IMG/VR virus record: IMGVR_UViG_2671180770_000010
Span: 1 to 8,162 of that record
Source of the DNA: a virus
Lineage: Duplodnaviria > Heunggongvirae > Uroviricota > Caudoviricetes
Strand: one strand, 5' to 3'
Length of the DNA stretch: 8,162 nucleotides
The position numbers were made by a program, and so were the translations under genes. Below the pieces are notes generated by a model. It did no database searches. It saw only the letters and a list, made by a program, of their open reading frames with translations, and had not been told where the DNA came from. Below are positions 1 to 8,162 of this stretch, piece after piece (position 1 is the stretch's first letter; the number at the start of each line of letters is the position of its first letter).

Positions 1-40
1 GTTGACGAAGACGATTCAGATTTTCTTCTTTTGTTGCCAT
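1..40 (-). CDS. 5' end of a lambda gpFI-like DNA-packaging protein gene (partial, runs off the window)
   Basis: Minus-strand ATG at 38-40 with GGAGG at 46-50 upstream. The 13 translated residues MATKEENLNRLRQ resemble the lambda FI N-terminus as I recall it. It lies directly downstream of a capsid gene and terminator, as in lambda E-FI. Only 13 codons are visible. Confidence 0.4.
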   Translation of the reverse strand, partial: MATKEENLNRLRQ

Positions 41-54
41 CTCAGCCTCCTGTG

Positions 55-83
55 AAAAAAGACACGGGGGCATTTCGCCCCCG
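55..83 (-). terminator. Rho-independent terminator after the truncated capsid gene
   Basis: On the minus strand, stem CGGGGGC, loop GAAAT, stem GCCCCCG, then TGTC and a T6 run. It begins 8 nt after the stop at 92-94. Confidence 0.6.
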
Positions 84-91
84 CTCACGGA

Positions 92-883
92 TTATTTCAC
101 CTGCACCACCACAAACTCATCCGGATCCGGCAGCACCATCAGCGGTGCGGACTGCGTCATGGTGAATTCACGGGCCGGATCGCCCACAGTCAGCCAGTGT
201 TTCGGATAACGGGAAGAGGCCACCACACCTTCGGACAACGCCTGCGCATCCTGAATGGCACCATAGCAACGAATGCCCTCTGCTGCCGTATTCCCCAGGA
301 CCAGTGTGCCCACCGGCAGATAACGTTTTTCGGTACCGTCGTCTGCCACATAAGACGTTTTCGCCACCACAATGGCCAGATCACCGTAATACCCTTTGAA
401 AGACACCACCGCTCCCAGGTCTTTCACTGCCGTTTCGAGTTGTGAATTTGAGCCGCGACGGGTATCCAGTTTTTCGCGGAACAGCTTAAAGCCATTCAGC
501 AGACGCCAGACCGTACCGTCCATAATGGCAATATTTACAAGACCGCTGGCCTGATCGCAGTAAAGGTCAATATCATGCGTCGGATCAAACGTATCACGGT
601 CCTGCTCAGACCATTTTTTACCGTCGGCCTGCTCAATGTTATTTCCTTCAGAGCGTCCGAAATCCACCTCGACCGTGTCAAACTGTTCCCCTTCCATGGT
701 GTATTTGCCATACAGCACGGCATTCACCGCCTGCATTTCTTCCACCTGGACAATGGCGTGCTCTTCCTGTTTGAGGTTATCGGTAATGATACGCAGACGA
801 CGGTAGGCCGGGTCGTTCAGCTGAGCCGGATCTTCACCAGGAAGGCGCTCAACCGCCTGCTGGTAATTAAATTCGTGTTTGGG
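92..883 (-). pseudogene. N-terminally truncated lambda gpE-family major capsid protein (roughly residues 80-341 retained)
   Basis: The translation carries gpE-like blocks (VEEMQAV, KLDTRRGSNS.LETAVKDLG, GDPAREFTM.QSAPLM, PDEFV.VQ). Hand translation upstream of the listed start shows the homology continuing to 883 (PKHEFNYQQAVERLPGEDPAQLNDPAYRRLRII). It then ends at an in-frame TAA at 884-886 with no start codon. Candidate internal starts are GTG 743-745 and ATG 734-736. Confidence 0.8.
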
Positions 884-1019
884 TTACATGAGTCAAATAT
901 GAAAGGATGTGAATGATTTGATTACGTTTTAGCTATAGAATTGAAATGGAAAATCCTTGAATGCAATACAACGTGCAATACATGGATGAAAACCATCACT
1001 CATTTAACAAGAGGAATCT

Positions 1020-1925
1020 ATGCGCTCACCCAACAGAATGCATGAACGCTCAACATTTTATAAGTATATGTCGTTGAATACCGCGAAGATTGTTCTTGAT
1101 TCATGCAGCCTTAGATGGAGTTCTCCGGTCCTATTTAATGACCCTTTTGATGTTCCAAGAGAAGTTATGCCTGGTATTAACGAAATTAATATTGGCAAAG
1201 CTTTAGCCCGCAAGTTAATAGCGGAGTTGATTACCCCCAGAGAAGACATACAAAATTTAAATCCTAGAATTAGAACAATGCTAAGTGATTTCCAAAAGTC
1301 ATTTCCTTTAGGCATACCCGCAGGATTAATTGAAAGATTTCAAGAAATGGTAAACATTCCACCAGTTGGGATTGGCGCTCCTGCGGCAATACAAGAAATG
1401 AAAGATGTCTGGCGAGGAATGCTTAATAACAGAAGGATTTTGTGTTTATCTGAGAGCCCTATAATCACTCCTATGTGGAATCACTATGCCGATAAATATA
1501 AAGGTATAGTTATCGAATTTGATTGTGTAGACTTTCTGGATAGCGCTTGGTTAATAGCCAAACCTATGAAATACACAGATGAAATGCCTCTAACTCACAC
1601 TGCTGAAGGGATGGCCGAGTTGCTTTTCATGCCAGACAATAAGTCAATTGAATATATCAATAATGAGATAATATTCATAAAAACAGAAGAATGGGCATAT
1701 GAAAGAGAGTGGAGAATTTCAACCTACGCTAGGCCAAATAGCACTGGTCAATATAGCGACTTAAAATTTCACCCTTTTGAGTTAAAATCTGTAATACTTG
1801 GTCCTCTTTTTGATGCCAGCGAGTTCGATGAAGTCGCATCACTAGTTAAGATGTATCCAAGAGCGAAATTATTTAAAAGTTCATTTGGGAACGACAGAAA
1901 AATATCCATAGTACCACTACCTTAA
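1020..1925 (+). CDS. Hypothetical 301-aa protein, DUF2971-like (tentative family assignment); candidate accessory or anti-phage cargo gene
   Basis: Long ORF with AGAGGA 5 nt before the ATG. It is strongly AT-rich compared with its flanks and is convergent with the neighbouring phage genes. Motifs YKY..L......L......SP.LFNDPFD, LCLSE and W.HYAD.YKG..IEFD match my recollection of DUF2971. Confidence 0.7.
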   Translation: MRSPNRMHERSTFYKYMSLNTAKIVLDSCSLRWSSPVLFNDPFDVPREVMPGINEINIGKALARKLIAELITPREDIQNLNPRIRTMLSDFQKSFPLGIPAGLIERFQEMVNIPPVGIGAPAAIQEMKDVWRGMLNNRRILCLSESPIITPMWNHYADKYKGIVIEFDCVDFLDSAWLIAKPMKYTDEMPLTHTAEGMAELLFMPDNKSIEYINNEIIFIKTEEWAYEREWRISTYARPNSTGQYSDLKFHPFELKSVILGPLFDASEFDEVASLVKMYPRAKLFKSSFGNDRKISIVPLP

Positions 1926-1956
1926 AAGGTCAAATGCTTTTGACAAATAAAATCTA

Positions 1957-1980
1957 TCGCCAGTTTTACTGGCGACTTTT
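1957..1980 (+). terminator. Rho-independent terminator downstream of the 301-aa gene
   Basis: Stem TCGCCAGT (1957-1964), loop TTT, stem ACTGGCGA (1968-1975), then CTTTT. It sits between the two convergent genes. Confidence 0.5.
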
Positions 1981-2031
1981 AAGCAACAAAGAACCACCTA
2001 AGCACTCTTCCTACCTATGGTTTCATTTGTT

Positions 2032-2583
2032 TTAACTTCGCTGATTATCCTTGATATACCTTTCAGCCATATCTGGAATGTTATCTGAGATCTGGTAAGC
2101 TCGAATAAATGCTTTACTGACCTCCATCTTAATGAAGTCCTGATACCGTTTTTCCATGCCAGGAAACTGTCGACAGATCGCAAGTGGAAGACTATCAATG
2201 ATTGCTCCAACTTCCCCAGTTAATTTCGACAAGGCATAAGTCGCAAATGCAGTGTCAATTACCTCACCTGTTTCGCTGGCATTCTTCAGTTCCTGTGCGT
2301 CGGCCTGCGCACGCGTAAGTCGATGGCGTTCATACTCAATAGTCCCTGGCAGGAGATCTGCCTCGCTGGCCTGCCGCAGTTCTTCAACCTCCCGGCGCAG
2401 CTTTTCGTTCTCAATTTCAGCATCCCTTTCGGCATACCATTTTATGACGGCGGCAGAGTCATAAAGCACCTCATTACCCTTGCCACCGCCTCGCAGAACG
2501 GGCATTCCCTGCTCCTGCCAGTTCTGAATGGTACGGATACTCGCACCGAAAATGTCAGCCAGCTGCTTTTTGTTGGCTTCCAT
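2032..2583 (-). CDS. Terminase small subunit, lambda Nu1 family (mosaic, divergent C-terminal part)
   Basis: The first ~103 residues are almost identical to lambda Nu1 as recalled (MEANKKQLADIFGASIRTIQNWQEQGMPVLRGGGKGNEVLYDSAAVIKWYAERDAEIENEKLRREVEELRQASEADL...). The remainder is recognisably related but divergent and AT-rich. A lambda-like cos lies immediately upstream and the length (183 aa) matches Nu1 (181 aa). Confidence 0.9.
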   Translation of the reverse strand: MEANKKQLADIFGASIRTIQNWQEQGMPVLRGGGKGNEVLYDSAAVIKWYAERDAEIENEKLRREVEELRQASEADLLPGTIEYERHRLTRAQADAQELKNASETGEVIDTAFATYALSKLTGEVGAIIDSLPLAICRQFPGMEKRYQDFIKMEVSKAFIRAYQISDNIPDMAERYIKDNQRS

Positions 2584-2610
2584 TGTTCATTCCACGGACA
2601 AAACCAGAGA

Positions 2611-2800
2611 AAGGAAACGACAGAGGCCAAAAAGCCTGTTTTTAGCACCTGTCGTTTCCTTTCTTTTTAGGGGGTGTTTTTAATAAAAACATTAAGTTAC
2701 GGCGAAGAAGAACGGAAACGCCTTAAACAGGAAAATTTTCACAAATAGCGAAAAACTGCGCGCCTGACGCCCCGTAACGTTCTGGATCACCGGAAAGGAC
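2611..2800 (-). other. Lambda-type cos site: conserved cosB (about 2611-2758), variant cosN (2761-2772), cosQ-like flank (about 2779-2800)
   Basis: The minus-strand sequence GTTACG-GGGCGTCAGGCG-CGCAGTTTTTCGCTATTTGTGAAAATTTTCCTGTTTAAGGCGTTTCCGTTCTTCTTCG...GAAAGGAAACGACAGGTGCT...CTGTCGTTTCCTTTC...GTGGAATGAACAATG parallels the lambda cos/Nu1 leader as I recall it. The 12-nt cosN equivalent is GGGCGTCAGGCG against lambda GGGCGGCGACCT. Confidence 0.7.
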
Positions 2801-2828
2801 CCGCCAGCCAGAGCGGGCCCTAATTTCA

Positions 2829-3212
2829 TCAACCAATCAGCTTATAGCGACCATCCCGTGCATTGCGGCGTACACGCTCAATCTTGAGGCATAGCGCCGC
2901 ATCTGGCTTTTTTGGGACAGGTACGCGGCAATATTCAGAAGCGCGAGGAATATTATTTATCCAGTCGATCACTTCACTTAAATACCAGGCCTTACGCCCT
3001 TCCGTAACCTGCACACGCTCCGGGAACTCTCCACTAGCCTCAAGGTTTAGCAGTGTACGACGACTCAGGGTTGTAATTTCCATCACCTGATTCATATCAA
3101 CAAGGCGCTCGCTTAAACACATTTTGTCAGCGATAGCTTTTAATTCCTCTACAGCTGGATTCGGGTACATCATTTCGGCAATTGGCTTAAGGTCATTGTA
3201 ATCATTCTGCAT
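2829..3212 (-). CDS. AlpA/Xis-like HTH DNA-binding protein (127 aa), last gene of the capsid operon and adjacent to cos
   Basis: The C-terminal segment EITTLSRRTLLNLEASGEFPERVQVTEGRKAWYLSEVIDWI fits the AlpA-family MerR-like HTH pattern. The start ATG at 3210-3212 follows AGGGGGA, just after the upstream gene's TAA. Confidence 0.6.
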   Translation of the reverse strand: MQNDYNDLKPIAEMMYPNPAVEELKAIADKMCLSERLVDMNQVMEITTLSRRTLLNLEASGEFPERVQVTEGRKAWYLSEVIDWINNIPRASEYCRVPVPKKPDAALCLKIERVRRNARDGRYKLIG

Positions 3213-3223
3213 TGTATCCCCCT

Positions 3224-3565
3224 TTACACACGAGCCAGCGGCTGAACAGAAATACCTGAGCCAACAAACGCTGCAACCTTTACTGACAGTTCTTTAACAG
3301 ACTCAGGCCAGTTCAGAGCATCAACATTTAAGACACCTGTCTTATAGACCTGAGCCTGTGTTTTTTTCGCGGTGTCGATTTGTACAGCGGAAACATAAAC
3401 CGCTTTACCTACGCTCGAACCATCCCATACTACCAGTGCACCTGTTGCATCTTCCTGCATCAGTGGCGTAAATGCAGGAATTACCCCTTTATTAGCTGAA
3501 AATATCCCCAGCGTAGTCACCAGTGCTTCAGTGCCAGCCATGAGTTCAGTGTAATGAGTAGCCAT
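3224..3565 (-). CDS. Head decoration protein, lambda gpD family
   Basis: 113 aa against lambda D at 110 aa. Shared blocks include TPLMQEDATGALVVWDG (lambda TPLMLDTSSRKLVAWDG), YKTGVLNVDALNWPES (lambda YKSGTFRYEDVLWPEA) and AFVGSGISVQ (lambda AFAGTAISIV). A GGGGGAG ribosome-binding site sits between the upstream stop and the ATG. Confidence 0.8.
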   Translation of the reverse strand: MATHYTELMAGTEALVTTLGIFSANKGVIPAFTPLMQEDATGALVVWDGSSVGKAVYVSAVQIDTAKKTQAQVYKTGVLNVDALNWPESVKELSVKVAAFVGSGISVQPLARV

Positions 3566-3574
3566 TGCTCCCCC

Positions 3575-4615
3575 TTAGCCAATGCGAACGGTAACAAAAC
3601 GATTGATGCGGGCCGGTATTGGCTGTGGTGCTGAATGTGTCTGCACATATTCAATAGCCGGATCACCAGGCACAATATAGTTTTTCGGTGCAAGTTCGGC
3701 TTTAGTCAGCCCCATTCGGATTAGCTCCGGATCCTGAATACCGCCATAGGCGACAATCCCCTGAAGAGCCGTATTGCCAAGCACCATCAAATCAGGATCA
3801 AGGAAATGTTTTTCTGTTCCGTCCTCGTCGGTATAACGCCCGCTGTAAACAACAATCGCAACATCGCCCATATACCCTTTAAAACTCACCGAATCACCAA
3901 GGTCTTTAAGGGCCGTTTCCAGTTCGGAATTAGAACCACGACGGGTATCCAGAGCCTCTTTTATAGCTCTGAATGAACGGTATTTCTTCCATACATTACC
4001 GCCCATAATGATAATATTAGTGACGCCCTCACTAAATTCTGTGTAGCTCTCAATATCATCATTTGGATCAAAAGTTTCTTTATCCTTACCTGACCACTCA
4101 GCACCGCCAGACTGAGTGATGATATTTTGTGGTTTAATATTCCAGTCCAGCTCATAACGTTCAATACCATCGCCCTCAATGATATTTTTCCCCGTTGTGA
4201 TTGCCTGAACAGCAAGCCATTCAATACGTGCACGAATAGCTTTAGCTTGATTTACAATCGCCTGTTTAACTTTAATATTACGCGCCCCAAAAGCATTGTA
4301 TTGCTCAGGTGATACACCAGCAGGGCGCACAGCTAACTTATTTGGATCAATGCTGCTTTTCGGCTTCATATAGCCTGGACGAATTGTTTTTGATTCGTAC
4401 CCTTCGTCACGTGAAACTTTACTACCCACCATAGGAGAACAAAACGCTGCAATTGGGATATTTGGATCGTCGATTGTATCAAGAATAATATCGCGCGATT
4501 CAAACATTACCGAGCGAGTAAAAAACAAACTGGTAAACAACGCATTTAGTTGTTTTTGTACATCTACAGCATTAACCACCTGTACAAGCTGAGTAGGCGA
4601 ATATAAATCAACCAT
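3575..4615 (-). CDS. Major capsid protein, lambda gpE family (complete, 346 aa)
   Basis: gpE-like blocks run the full length (LYSPTQL..., RPGYMKPK, ITQSGGAEWS, DTRRGSNSELETALKDLG, GDPA.E). I moved the start to the ATG at 4613-4615, which has AAGAGG 6 nt upstream. The 404-aa ORF in the track is an upstream over-extension. Confidence 0.85.
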   Translation of the reverse strand: MVDLYSPTQLVQVVNAVDVQKQLNALFTSLFFTRSVMFESRDIILDTIDDPNIPIAAFCSPMVGSKVSRDEGYESKTIRPGYMKPKSSIDPNKLAVRPAGVSPEQYNAFGARNIKVKQAIVNQAKAIRARIEWLAVQAITTGKNIIEGDGIERYELDWNIKPQNIITQSGGAEWSGKDKETFDPNDDIESYTEFSEGVTNIIIMGGNVWKKYRSFRAIKEALDTRRGSNSELETALKDLGDSVSFKGYMGDVAIVVYSGRYTDEDGTEKHFLDPDLMVLGNTALQGIVAYGGIQDPELIRMGLTKAELAPKNYIVPGDPAIEYVQTHSAPQPIPARINRFVTVRIG

Positions 4616-4789
4616 ACGCATCCTCTTTGCATTCATTAAAAATAATTGTGGATATATGCTATCACCGATATTTGTCATGCGAACACATGCAACCGAGTGC
4701 AATGTTGTATAAAGTTTTGGGGTGACAACTTCAGTGCGGACAATTAGTGTTAATATCTTCACTCCCTTTGGTCGGGATTTATGTAGCAT

Positions 4790-4821
4790 GCCGGAAAATT
4801 TATTTTTTCCGGCCTTTTTTT
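4790..4821 (+). terminator. Plus-strand intrinsic-terminator-like hairpin between the SSB and capsid genes
   Basis: Stem GCCGGAAAA (4790-4798), loop TTTATT, stem TTTTCCGGC (4805-4813), then C and a T7 run. The T-run follows the hairpin only on the plus strand, which is antisense to the surrounding genes. Confidence 0.4.
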
Positions 4822-4832
4822 ATTGGCAATAT

Positions 4833-5282
4833 TTAAAACGGGATATCATCTCCCCATTGCTCATTATCTCCCACTGGTGGCTGGCTTCCTTGCTGATCTG
4901 CCTGTTGTTTTGCTCTGTTCAGTGCGTCAGTAGCCTGCCCCTGTTGGCCTTTTTTGCCGCCCGGTCGCACCGATCGCGCACTGATTACGCTGTCTGCGAT
5001 AACCTGCCAGCCCTGCCGCGTTTCGCCGTTCTGTCCAGTCCACTGGCTCATCTGCATGTTACCCGCCACGCTTAGGAGTTCGCCTTTGTGATGCTTTGCC
5101 AGCGCGTCGGCTTGTCTGCCAAACGCCAGGACAGATAACCACATCGTCGCCTGACCGTCATCCGACTGACTGCAGGGCAGTGATACCGCCATACGCGCCA
5201 GCGTCATGGGGGTGCCCTTGCTGGTCTGTTTTGTCTGCGGGTCGTCCACCAACCGCCCGTAAACTGATATTTGCGCCGTCAT
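4833..5282 (-). CDS. Single-stranded DNA-binding protein (SSB family), 149 aa
   Basis: OB-fold-like N-terminal region (ISVYGRLVDDPQ...TKQTSKGTPMT..., WLSVLAFGRQAD), a Gly/Gln-rich linker and the canonical acidic tail DDIPF. Its ATG overlaps the upstream gene's TGA as ATGA at 5279-5282. Confidence 0.8.
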   Translation of the reverse strand: MTAQISVYGRLVDDPQTKQTSKGTPMTLARMAVSLPCSQSDDGQATMWLSVLAFGRQADALAKHHKGELLSVAGNMQMSQWTGQNGETRQGWQVIADSVISARSVRPGGKKGQQGQATDALNRAKQQADQQGSQPPVGDNEQWGDDIPF

Positions 5283-5524
5283 GCTGCCTGCTCTCCGGAC
5301 TTAATATTGATTGTTGTCACTTCCTCCGCTTCAGCAATCTCCCGTTCGGTCAGAGTGGCAAAATTTGCAGCCGCCGTTGTCATGAATGCGCTAATCAGTT
5401 CGGGATGTGCTTTCGCGTATCCTTCCCCGGCGTTGCGGTCGATGATTTTTATCGACACCCTTAACCAGTGTTCCGTCAAATCAAGGGCGTGCGATTGTGA
5501 TTTTTTTGTGTGCTTCGCTGTCAT
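5279..5524 (-). CDS. Hypothetical 81-aa protein, translationally coupled to the SSB gene
   Basis: ORF sits directly downstream of the iteron region and overlaps the SSB start by ATGA. I do not recognise a family. Confidence 0.5.
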   Translation of the reverse strand: MTAKHTKKSQSHALDLTEHWLRVSIKIIDRNAGEGYAKAHPELISAFMTTAAANFATLTEREIAEAEEVTTINIKSGEQAA

Positions 5525-5570
5525 AGGCTTTATCTCACAGCAGTAAATTAAAATTTTTGCGTTTTAACCC

Positions 5571-5798
5571 TTCACCTGTTCACCTTTTGATATTTTCTCT
5601 TTTAATTCATAATGTTAATGGGTGAACAGTTTCACAAAAACTATTCACCAACTGTTCACCACTGTTCACCCTTGAAGCTCAATAAACAATCAAAAAGGTG
5701 AACAGTGAATAGTTTGGTGAACAGTTCATAAATAACTGTTCACCCTATAATATACTGATATAAAAGATATTTATGACAGGGTGAACAGTGGTGAACAG
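5571..5798. repeat. Iteron array (P4 ori/crr-type TGTTCACC repeats); putative replication origin
   Basis: About ten copies of CTGTTCACC or its complement GGTGAACAG in both orientations (5576-5584, 5621-5629, 5652-5660, 5662-5670, 5697-5705, 5716-5724, 5736-5744, 5780-5788, 5790-5798, plus degenerate copies). An AT-rich stretch lies at 5745-5779. The array is adjacent to the primase gene. Confidence 0.75.
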
Positions 5799-5811
5799 TT
5801 ATTCCATAAGT

Positions 5812-7632
5812 TTAATTTTTGCTATCGTCATTAGTGACCGATACACATGATGGCATCCAGTCTTCTGATTCCTCCGTCAGTGTCACGTTTGAACGCAAAC
5901 CGTGCTTCGTTTTCCGTTTCATATACTCCCTGCCATATTCCGCCATTGCCCCCGGCATATCTTTACCGAAGCGCGTCAGTGTTACAGGTTTACCAAACCC
6001 ATGTGCCCTCATATAAGCCAGATAGGCATGATAGAGATACCTGCGTGGGCTGAATGGCACAATTTCAGCATTACCCACTAACAGGCCATCACACATTACC
6101 GATGCCATGAGATAGCCGCAGAAGTCCACCAGCGAATCCCCCTCTCGCTTTATCGCCAGTGCTTCTTCAGATTTCTGCTGCTCATATAACAGGCGTCTGG
6201 CTTCGTCCTGATCAGCAAACCGTGTAAGCAGATGACGAATCACTACCGCCAGCTCACCTTCTATTTTTTCCGCCAGCATCGAATCGCGTTCGTTCTCCGG
6301 TACAACTTCCGAAAAATTGAATATCACCCGACGACGTGAGATCCCCCCGCTGCGGTCACTGAATGACATGGCGTTATTGTTAACCACCAGCACTACTGCC
6401 GGAATACGCGTTGAATAGGGGGCTTTGTGTTTCGGGTCAATTGCCACCTTGTCACCGCCTGTAATGGCCTTAATCCCTGCCCCATCACCAGCGTAGCGGG
6501 TCATATCTGGCATGATAATCAGCGAAAAGCCAACCACTAACGCACGTTCCCTTGCATCTTCCAGCGCCTTCATGCTTGCTGATACTGTATTAGCCTTACC
6601 CGCCAGCATGGTGCAAATCTCCGCCATCACGCTTTTACCACTTCCCCCCGGCCCTGTTACCTCAATGAATAACTGCCAGTCGTACCGGTTCGCCAGCACC
6701 ATGAATAATGCCGCCAGTACGCGATCTGCCTTGCGGTCATTCTCAGCCACCGAACGGCGCAACCACTTCCAGAAATTCGGCGCATGTGTTGCCAGCGTTT
6801 CCCCCTCTGCTGGTGGGCTGAAAGGTAATTCACTGGCAATTAACAACCAGTCGTTTTTGTTATGCTCCCGAAAATTACCTGTTCTGGTATCAAATACCCC
6901 GTTACTGAATCCAATCAGGTTACGGGCTGTATTCCCCATTACAGGCAAACTTAACTTCATGGTATCTACCGCCGATTTAATGGCGTTCTGCGAATAGCTG
7001 ATCTCCGCATCAATGAAAATCTGCGCCATAGCACGCTGTAACTCTTTATCCTGAACCGGCTCCCATACAACGCCGTTGTAATGATGAACGGTGTCAGAGT
7101 CGGCATTGATTGCCAGTTCGCCGCCGTAATGTGCCAGGAGAACTTCACCGCGCTGGCTGGCCCCCATCTGATTCAACGCCAAAGATGAAGCACGCTCGTC
7201 ATTTTTGCGCTCTGCCTTCTTCACTGGCAGTTCAATCACCAGACTTTCCCCATGCTCCGCTTCAGCTTTTAGGCCGACAAGGCGCGGAGTCCAGTCTTCA
7301 GGCTCTCGATCAACAAAGCTACGGTAACAACGTGCTTCCTTTACGCCTGCAATAGCAAGTAATGTCGCAACCTTCGTCAGACTTTTCTCTGCAATCTTTC
7401 CGGCACGATAAACACGCACATAATGACGGCCTTCATCGATAATTTGCATATCATCCAGGTTTTCCAGTTGTTCCGTACCCAGAATTACTGGTGGTGTATC
7501 ATCTGCTGCAATATGCTTACCTGCCCATTCATTCCATTCTTTTGCATGGCTCCAGGCATCACTGCCAGCAAAAATGATGACTTCCGTCATTTTGTCGCGC
7601 GGTTGGTATTTTAAGTTCGGAGCACGTTTCAT
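5812..7632 (-). CDS. P4 alpha-like replication protein (phage/plasmid primase-helicase family; pri-rep)
   Basis: 606-aa ORF with the Walker A motif GPGGSGKS (EVTGPGGSGKSV) in its central region. Its size, architecture and the adjacent TGTTCACC iterons are typical of P4-family and PICI primase/helicases. The ATG overlaps the upstream ORF stop as ATGA at 7629-7632. Confidence 0.85.
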   Translation of the reverse strand: MKRAPNLKYQPRDKMTEVIIFAGSDAWSHAKEWNEWAGKHIAADDTPPVILGTEQLENLDDMQIIDEGRHYVRVYRAGKIAEKSLTKVATLLAIAGVKEARCYRSFVDREPEDWTPRLVGLKAEAEHGESLVIELPVKKAERKNDERASSLALNQMGASQRGEVLLAHYGGELAINADSDTVHHYNGVVWEPVQDKELQRAMAQIFIDAEISYSQNAIKSAVDTMKLSLPVMGNTARNLIGFSNGVFDTRTGNFREHNKNDWLLIASELPFSPPAEGETLATHAPNFWKWLRRSVAENDRKADRVLAALFMVLANRYDWQLFIEVTGPGGSGKSVMAEICTMLAGKANTVSASMKALEDARERALVVGFSLIIMPDMTRYAGDGAGIKAITGGDKVAIDPKHKAPYSTRIPAVVLVVNNNAMSFSDRSGGISRRRVIFNFSEVVPENERDSMLAEKIEGELAVVIRHLLTRFADQDEARRLLYEQQKSEEALAIKREGDSLVDFCGYLMASVMCDGLLVGNAEIVPFSPRRYLYHAYLAYMRAHGFGKPVTLTRFGKDMPGAMAEYGREYMKRKTKHGLRSNVTLTEESEDWMPSCVSVTNDDSKN

Positions 7633-7916
7633 TTGTTACCTCCGGCAACTAACATTGCCCGAATTTTGCGGATATAGCCTGCGGCACGCCTCTGATTATC
7701 TGTCTTGCAATTTTTTACCAGAATGAAATCTCTTTCGAACTGCTGACGCGGCATAACACATTCAAAATCATAACCATCACGCAAATAAGAGACACGACGA
7801 TCATCAACCGAAATAATCTTTACCCGATAGCCATAGCTGTCTTTGAAAATATCCCCAAGGCTGATTTTTGAATGAGTTTGACCGCTGGCAATAAAGCCAG
7901 AAAATTTATTTTTCAT
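7629..7916 (-). CDS. Hypothetical 95-aa protein, translationally coupled to the primase gene
   Basis: ORF has GGAG 8 nt upstream of the ATG at 7914-7916 and an ATGA stop/start overlap with the primase gene. No family recognised. Confidence 0.5.
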   Translation of the reverse strand: MKNKFSGFIASGQTHSKISLGDIFKDSYGYRVKIISVDDRRVSYLRDGYDFECVMPRQQFERDFILVKNCKTDNQRRAAGYIRKIRAMLVAGGNK

Positions 7917-8162
7917 TTTTTATTCTCCGGTATAGCTCTGATCGTGTATTTTTATAGCTTCATCCAGCTCTTTGATGACAGGATCAAGTAACGTAATTAA
8001 CGCTCCAGCTAAATTAGCATCCCGTTCATCGTGTTCCGCATTTGTTGTCCCATCAAGCCAGGTTGGGCTTTGTTGAATAAATAAGATTTCGTGCGAACGA
8101 CCCTGTAGCTGGCTGGATTTTCAGGCAATACGCACGCTTTCTGGCATCCCAGCCTTTGTCAT

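Follow-up and report, generated by a model that had tools for sequence, protein, structure and literature searches.

We have identified a lambda-type cos site with a variant cohesive end in a helper-embedded satellite. The site lies on the minus strand at positions 2608-2802 of an 8,162-nucleotide stretch of viral DNA (IMG/VR record IMGVR_UViG_2671180770_000010, positions 1 to 8,162), the whole of which is referred to here as the window. Its sequence makes it likely, in our judgement, that this is a functional cos of the satellite, that its variant end is tolerated, and that it is cut by the gpA of the helper. The variant is a new cosN allele and not a broken site, since four of the five changed positions are known to be tolerated by the cutting enzyme. 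It is explained most simply by descent together with tolerated variation. The ends that it would yield are probably incompatible with those of the helper, so that a common Escherichia coli satellite would carry ends probably unable to pair with its helper's.

The cos site of the window

The reverse complement of window positions 2560-2860 was aligned with reference cos sites, and a complete lambda-type anatomy was found (Table 1). The original prediction that the cosB side and the Nu1 leader are lambda-like with scattered substitutions was borne out: the match to lambda/DE3 runs without gaps from cosQ to the Nu1 start over 244 bp at 89.8% identity, and the R boxes are identical. The same stretch matches the cos regions of about 100 lambda-like phage records, the best of them at 92.7%. 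A four-way alignment of the window, lambda/DE3, prophage YDC107_1 and a Stx1a phage is also gap-free from cosQ to the Nu1 start, and the Nu1-like ATG at 2583 stands at bp 190 from the nick, the same distance as in the phages. All of the sequence features of a lambda-type complex cos are present at the site. R1, R2 and R3 are 16-bp boxes, all identical to those of lambda and at lambda spacing, with R2 inverted, which is the arrangement of a complex cosB; R3 and R1 form a direct repeat, and the stretch between cosN and R3 has no indel relative to lambda. The lambda IHF site sits in the I1 interval, between R3 and R2. The heptamer GGGTCCT is taken by us to be the lambda cosQ. An element of this kind is 7 bp long and highly conserved (PMC4669245), and the extent of R3 given here follows PMC9026076.

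Table 1. Features of the window, with the cos sub-sites listed among the genes in order of position
Feature	Position	Strand	Basis and remarks
3' fragment of helper major capsid gene E (interrupted; integration target)	92..745	-	Pfam Phage_cap_E, profile positions 119-329 only
DUF2971 gene, satellite right end	1020..1925	+	Pfam DUF2971; relatives annotated likewise
Nu1-like small terminase gene, 183 aa	2032..2583	-	Pfam Phage_Nu1, E=8e-82
cosB R1 (CTGTCGTTTCCTTTCT)	2608..2623	-	Identical to lambda
cosB R2 (AGAAAGGAAACGACAG)	2649..2664	-	Identical to lambda; inverted relative to R3 and R1; inverted repeat with R1
I1 interval, R3 to R2	2665..2707	-	By position only; A+T-rich, near lambda, few substitutions
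cosB R3 (AGGCGTTTCCGTTCTT)	2708..2723	-	Identical to lambda; bp 50-65 from the nick, as in lambda
cosN cohesive-end equivalent GGGCGTCAGGCG (type III)	2761..2772	-	Coincides with the annotated 'cos site' of phage DE3
cosQ (GGGTCCT), packaging-termination element	2796..2802	-	Same heptamer as lambda in the corresponding place, 24-30 bp upstream of the nick
AlpA-like HTH gene, immediately upstream of cos	2829..3212	-	Pfam Phage_AlpA
D-like head-decoration gene	3224..3565	-	Pfam HDPD
E-like major capsid gene	3575..4789	-	Pfam Phage_cap_E; relatives annotated with a shorter, 346-aa start
SSB	4833..5282	-	Name from annotated 96.5%-identical E. coli loci
Small ORF, replication block	5279..5524	-	From annotated 96.5%-identical E. 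coli loci
Primase	5812..7632	-	From annotated 96.5%-identical E. coli loci
DUF4222	7629..7916	-	From annotated 96.5%-identical E. coli loci

The divergence from lambda is greatest at the cohesive end itself. The cosN equivalent is bordered by TACG at 2773-2776 and by CG at 2759-2760, and reads ACG/GGGCGTCAGGCG/CGC. The lambda cohesive end, GGGCGGCGACCT, had been given correctly in the original prediction, as the annotated 'cos site' of DE3 shows, and exact alignment of the two 12-mers gives the anticipated 7/12 identical positions. The differences fall at bp 6, 8, 9, 10 and 12; bp 1-5 and both flanks are those of lambda, bp 6 differs, and the right half differs at four of its six positions. 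The GTTACG flank had been called conserved, and it is (CGTTACG in the window, GGTTACG in lambda). Mismatches to lambda number 26 in 245 aligned bp, and they are concentrated at the nicking site as had been proposed, with five inside the 12-bp cosN (hypergeometric P=0.004) and 11 within -11 to +18 around the nick (P=3e-5). The nicks at the window cosN are placed by homology and would fall at the positions used in lambda. Shifted positions were considered, and nothing spoke in their favour: both the CG flanks and the distance to R3 are conserved exactly.

A satellite-specific stretch that overlaps cosQ, at 2793-2807 (minus strand CTGGCGGGTCCTTTC), matches the R-box CTGTCGTTTCCTTTC at 12/15 positions. 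The resemblance may be due to chance, or may mark an extra contact for small terminase on the cosQ side.

A helper-embedded satellite carries the site

The cos of the window belongs to an HE-PICI satellite of the 11capE family, which lies within capsid gene E of a lambda-like prophage. Loci in 17 complete E. coli genomes match the window at 96-96.5% identity, and the window spans the 3' E fragment plus the satellite genes from DUF2971 to DUF4222. The E. coli relatives contain an integrase, alpA, an icd-like gene, a primase, SSB, E-like and D-like genes, an AlpA-like HTH gene, cos, a Nu1-like gene and DUF2971. The integrase seen in these relatives lies outside the window, and the primase and AlpA-like genes lie inside it. 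The 3' E fragment of the window is co-oriented with the satellite genes, as in a capE insertion; in the relatives it is annotated as 'major capsid protein, missing N-terminus', with the other half beyond the satellite integrase. In eight 96%-identical complete-genome loci the element is flanked by the other E fragment, helper head genes and tail genes.

The element, read from the window together with its relatives, shares several features with the type member of the family, 11capE, which was described by the Williams laboratory, is about 11 kb long, lies in and is co-oriented with capsid gene E of a lambdoid prophage, and has its own E homologue, primase, AlpA-like gene and integrase (PMC10111431). 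The cos-like stretch of 11capE, about 258 bp and about 90% identical to its helper (PMC10111431), is comparable to the 244-bp match of the window to lambda/DE3. In contrast, 11capE was described without a terS and with its cosN unanalysed (PMC10111431), and the window copy has a Nu1-like gene and a cosN unlike that of the helper.

The Nu1-like protein is composed of two parts. Its residues 1-108 are 94% identical to lambda Nu1 (102/108). For the C-terminal 84 aa, identity to any phage Nu1 in GenBank is only 42%, and a tblastn search among GenBank phages for a donor of this half found nothing closer than lambda Nu1 (42%). Residues 1-108 of Nu1 comprise the DNA-binding domain and part of the core helix, and the lambda C-terminus serves self-assembly and gpA binding. 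No gpA gene follows the satellite Nu1. Three genomes have an internal stop in the satellite Nu1, and strain CT265 has substitutions in R3 and R2 together with a truncated Nu1. On the other side of cos, the 3' flank of the AlpA-like gene forms a satellite-specific left border, TTAGGGCCCG.TCTGGCTGG, which is common to all satellite copies and missing from phages. The satellite junction (cosN plus the HTH gene) is present in 379/5426 complete E. coli genomes, or about 7%.

The satellite codes for its own D-like and E-like proteins while it interrupts the E gene of the helper, and these proteins are about 40-45% identical to helper D and E. The DUF2971 gene lies between Nu1 and the attachment site on the strand opposite to all other satellite genes, and it appears to be an accessory or cargo gene; module-B satellites have other content in its slot.

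Alleles of cosN and their distribution

IMG/VR was scanned using a pattern in which the cosQ-side and cosB-side flanks were fixed and cosN was free. The resulting tally covers 125 cos sites among the matches listed, made up of 120 IMG/VR stretches and a few cos loci fetched earlier, and it contains three discrete alleles and one singleton. Type I, the lambda 12-mer, accounts for 116 of these 125 sites; type II is GGGCGGAAGGCG, type III is the allele of the window, and the singleton is GGGCGACGACCT. Two further alleles, GGGCGGCAGACG and GGGCGGCTGACG, were found in satellites. Exhaustive IMG/VR scans recovered type III in 21 contigs and type II in 48, the contexts of which were classified by tblastn and flank sequence. 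Seventeen of the type III contigs are satellites and four have phage-type left flanks. Nu1 and a full or partial gpA stand immediately downstream in three of the four phage-context sites, and in one type III prophage, L008, a complete row of head genes follows cos. The exact type III 12-mer was also found in 11 complete E. coli genomes, which come from several countries and represent several prophage contexts. The 12-mer of the window is therefore identical to the cosN of apparently complete lambdoid prophages, in which it would presumably be cut. This goes part of the way towards the identity with a known functional lambdoid cosN that would have refuted the original prediction; the lambda sequence from which that prediction started was not in error.

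Type II differs from type III by 2 nt. Most of its carriers are full phages; the deposited phage PhiR46_1 and prophage YDC107_1 have it. A search for a paper on the PhiR phages that might confirm plaque formation found none, and their activity is read only from the propagation hosts given in the records. No type III cos was matched in a scan of one genome per bacterial species, and a relaxed form of that scan returned only nine lambda-type cos sites, one of type II and one of N15 type, with several in assemblies of non-enteric bacteria, a sample poorly suited to allele frequencies. Exact type I lambda-type cos sites were found in reference assemblies of unrelated organisms (L203, L204, L205, L207 and L208), namely a Nanosynbacter MAG, an Alicyclobacillus 'plasmid', a Collinsella MAG, Aeromicrobium and Raphidiopsis; these are most likely lambda DNA contamination or spike-in. 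Searches of the searchable literature with the variant 12-mers and their complements returned unrelated matches only.

With positions -11 to +18 left unconstrained, 73 distinct cos haplotypes were obtained. Positions -6, -4 to -1 (TACG), +1 to +5 (GGGCG), +11, +15 and +16 are invariant among them, and positions 6-10, 12-14, 17 and 18 vary. The alleles are discrete, and types I and II have no intermediates among the 73 haplotypes. At least five or six cosN alleles circulate in the lambdoid phages and satellites of E. coli, in which bp 1-5, bp 11 and the nick flanks are fixed. A lambda-like cos with a 12-mer other than that of the textbook should not be annotated as defective.

Cohesive ends and compatibility with the helper

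The perfect end duplex, calculated with DNA parameters, is -18.7 kcal/mol for type III and -19.0 for lambda, and all of the alleles keep 10/12 G+C in the cohesive end. For hybrid ends, the predicted values are about -9 kcal/mol for lambda with type III and -15 for lambda with N15; the lambda/N15 pairing, which has a 2-nt mismatch, is viable and about fourfold less productive (PMC4669245). Based on these self and hybrid duplex energies, the satellite ends should close normally and pair poorly with type I. Circularisation of the satellite would not be blocked, because its ends need match only each other and not those of the helper. In all eight complete genomes where both sites could be read, the satellite has a type III cos and the enclosing prophage a type I cos. 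The original prediction had offered a changed cohesive-end specificity, with ends that could not anneal to the helper's, and this part of it stands insofar as the end sequence is altered, differs from the helper cos in each of these genomes (8/8) and is predicted to pair weakly in hybrids.

It is possible, though in our view unlikely, that the variant end has been selected and not merely inherited. Under this explanation, satellites that have the cosB of the helper would keep 'private' ends, with the cosN alleles acting as compatibility groups, and chromosomes with one end at a satellite cos and the other at a helper cos, in either order, would be unable to circularise. One example would be the head-sized stretch from cosS to cosH of an unexcised composite, which may be about 46 kb by analogy with a 61-kb composite (PMC10111431). 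Satellites were collected using a scan keyed on the satellite-specific left flank, with cosN free. Every satellite with a lambda-type cosB is type III (10/10 IMG/VR and 10/10 genomic copies), and those with an N15-like cosB are mixed, with 33 of type I, 4 of type II, 6 of type III and 2 with other alleles; the association of type III with cosB type has a Fisher P of 2.7e-7, not corrected for relatedness. Selection would fit this distribution. It would also fit the type I helper cos in all of the composites, the discreteness of the alleles, and the persistence of the type III core in four combinations of flank haplotypes, of which some resemble phages as far as bp +13. A cost is also conceivable, given that a 2-nt mismatch lowers yield about fourfold (PMC4669245) and that the 5-nt mismatch considered here halves the predicted duplex energy. 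However, the satellites with a lambda-type cosB share at least 96% identity among themselves, so that shared ancestry alone explains the fixation of type III, and about 94% of phage cos sites are type I, so that any type III lineage would be expected to differ from its helper by chance.

Satellite and helper are both type I in L106 and in strain SCEC020022, which also speaks against selected ends. A rule that the satellite cosN always differs from that of its helper was considered and rejected on the basis of these two, in which it is cosB, and not cosN, that differs between the partners. Near two further type I satellites no helper cos was found; these elements are integrated in the chromosome and not in a prophage.

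The more general proposal that the cohesive end is a compatibility label seems to us improbable. In that proposal, selection would keep the cosN GGGCGTCAGGCG distinct, and the few discrete alleles would represent mutually incompatible end-joining groups maintained by selection and not by drift; satellite genomes, helper genomes and defective hybrids would thereby be kept genetically separate. If the mismatch has been selected, it would give satellites a new and simple means of remaining distinct from their helpers; otherwise it serves as a neutral marker with which recombination at cos can be traced.

The cutting enzyme and variation in cosN

Full-length gpA sequences were aligned from 54 loci (32 of type I, 21 of type II and 1 of type III). 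Overall identity is about 99%. There are 53 variable columns, not one of which separates the cosN alleles, and a co-evolved nuclease was rejected on this basis. The gpA of the type III prophage L008 and that of the type II phage PhiR46_1 are identical when rounded (100%).

These observations agree with published work on cosN genetics. Differences at bp 7-12 are common among lambda-like phages, occurring at 9 and 12 in N15 and phiD326 and at 8, 9 and 11 in Gifsy-1, and right-half changes have no measurable effect on cos cleavage (Feiss 2015, PMC4669245). Such changes are tolerated because TerS on R3 anchors TerL, and lambda terminase uses cosN-N15 as well as its own cosN (PMC4669245). The CG flanks of cosN and cosQ are conserved, and the left half of cosN is regarded as under selection (PMC4669245). 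The TerL nuclease is not highly sequence-specific, and the spacing between cosN and R3 is critical (Murialdo and Feiss 2022, PMC9026076); in the window this spacing is exactly that of lambda. The N15 record annotates its single-stranded sticky end as GGGCGGCGTCCG.

A changed cleavage specificity, in which the site would be cut only by an adapted terminase, steered for instance by the Nu1-like protein of the satellite, and not by an ordinary lambda-type enzyme, is very unlikely. The concentration of divergence at the nick site would be consistent with it, as would the position of one change, bp 6, in the left half, which is functionally sensitive (PMC4669245), and the finding that satellites having a Nu1 with the lambda DNA-binding domain and a diverged C-terminal half are all type III in the sample examined. 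However, gpA has no allele-specific residue, type III also occurs in satellites that have no Nu1 gene or an N15-like TerS, and TerL is positioned by TerS on R3 (PMC9026076, PMC4669245). Cleavage specificity appears to be unchanged: gpA does not co-vary with cosN, and four of the five changes lie in the tolerated bp 7-12 (PMC4669245).

Decay of the cos into a remnant that is no longer cut or packaged, the other outcome originally proposed, is hardly tenable: the element does lie in a prophage region, the type member of its family has no detected virions (PMC10111431) and some copies have a Nu1 pseudogene or point changes in the R boxes, but the window shows no damage to any sub-site or spacing and has open reading frames for Nu1 and for the D-like and E-like proteins. 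More than 30 copies, among them many independent contigs and intact prophages, have an identical 12-mer between immediate flanks that vary; its G+C content and the strength of its self-pairing are kept, the same allele precedes intact Nu1-gpA operons, and the frequency of the junction in complete E. coli genomes (379/5426) argues for ongoing spread of the satellite.

In the IMG/VR loci the N-terminus of gpA, which is the Nu1-binding end, occurs as two linked haplotypes at residues 8-14 and 21 (V8/N9/R10/H13/F14 and I8/D9/I10/R13/D14). The second is present in 4/32 type I phages and is unrelated to the cosN allele. The two haplotypes may mark a second Nu1-gpA pairing specificity.

Proposed working of the site

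Taking descent with tolerated variation as the preferred explanation, the site may work as follows. Small terminase, being that of the helper, the Nu1-like protein of the satellite with its lambda DNA-binding domain, or both, would bind R3, R2 and R1 across the bend at I1 and would position the helper gpA, which would nick at sites 12 bp apart. The distance to R3, together with the conserved CG flanks and left half (GGGCG), would fix the nick sites. gpA would not read the right half of cosN, so that a different 12-mer should be cut just as well. The product would be satellite DNA with 5'-GGGCGTCAGGCG ends, which should pair perfectly with each other because both derive from identical cos copies in the satellite concatemer, and which should pair poorly with the GGGCGGCGACCT ends of the helper. 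The allele would then be a natural cohesive-end variant found mainly in this satellite lineage and occasionally in phages. We infer that the window cos undergoes cleavage at the homologous nick positions and packaging, with hybrid ends incompatible. The change at bp 6 (G to T) falls in the left half and counts against the account of tolerated variation. The copies with decay around the site, and the strong divergence of the C-terminal, TerL-binding half of the satellite Nu1, likewise count against a working site. For the type member 11capE, excision has been seen and virions were not detectable (PMC10111431).

Comparison with known cos systems

The window shares with lambda its cos architecture and spacing, the cosQ heptamer, the three R boxes, the CG nick flanks, bp 1-5 of the cohesive end and the position of the Nu1 start. 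Unlike lambda, it has a cohesive end that differs at bp 6, 8, 9, 10 and 12, its owner is an 11-kb satellite, and gpA does not follow Nu1. N15, phiD326 and Gifsy-1 also represent natural variation in cosN, and the G at bp 12 of the window is that of N15. In contrast to the two or three differences published for these phages, the window has five, including one at bp 6 in the left half. N15 has a simple and different cosB, whereas the window combines a variant cosN with a cosB whose boxes are those of lambda. The rule from the Feiss laboratory that the right half of cosN is free to vary is thereby extended to five differences, including bp 6, in an otherwise lambda-like cos with identical cosQ and R boxes. 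The type III cosN provides a natural substrate for testing what TerL reads.

EcCICFT073, an Rpp-type PICI, is likewise a satellite with a lambda-like cos and a conserved cosQ that depends on the TerL of its helper (PMC6092414, PMC6739421, PMC9026076). Its layout is the inverse of that described here. EcCICFT073 keeps the cosN of the helper and has a replaced cosB that is read by Rpp-TerS, whereas the window keeps cosB and has a changed cosN, and the protein adjoining its cos is a full-length Nu1 homologue rather than Rpp, so that the site is not an Rpp-type cos. The packaging layout of the satellite is thus opposite to the EcCICFT073/Rpp paradigm.

Other features of the satellite family

Three right-hand packaging modules were observed behind the same left border and cosQ (loci L133, L137, L148, L038, L075, L152 and L210-L214, compared from cos +30 to +700). 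Module 1, that of the window, has a lambda-type cosB and a lambda-like Nu1; module 2 has a lambda-type cosB without Nu1 (L130, L146); and module 3 has an N15-like cosB (GGTGGTGGTTTTGTT...) with a 175-aa N15-like TerS homologue, which shares 46% identity with the helper's TerS in L106. The break point of the modules lies about 20-30 bp to the right of cosN.

Two loci of the same family, L217 (NZ_CP061101.1) and L218 (NZ_CP023349.1), have an N15-like cos module and a type I cosN. The 16 kb in which prophage late genes of a helper would lie contain chromosomal genes and none of these late genes, so that the family seems to include conventional chromosomal PICIs besides helper-embedded ones. The integrase of L217 adjoins nfeF.
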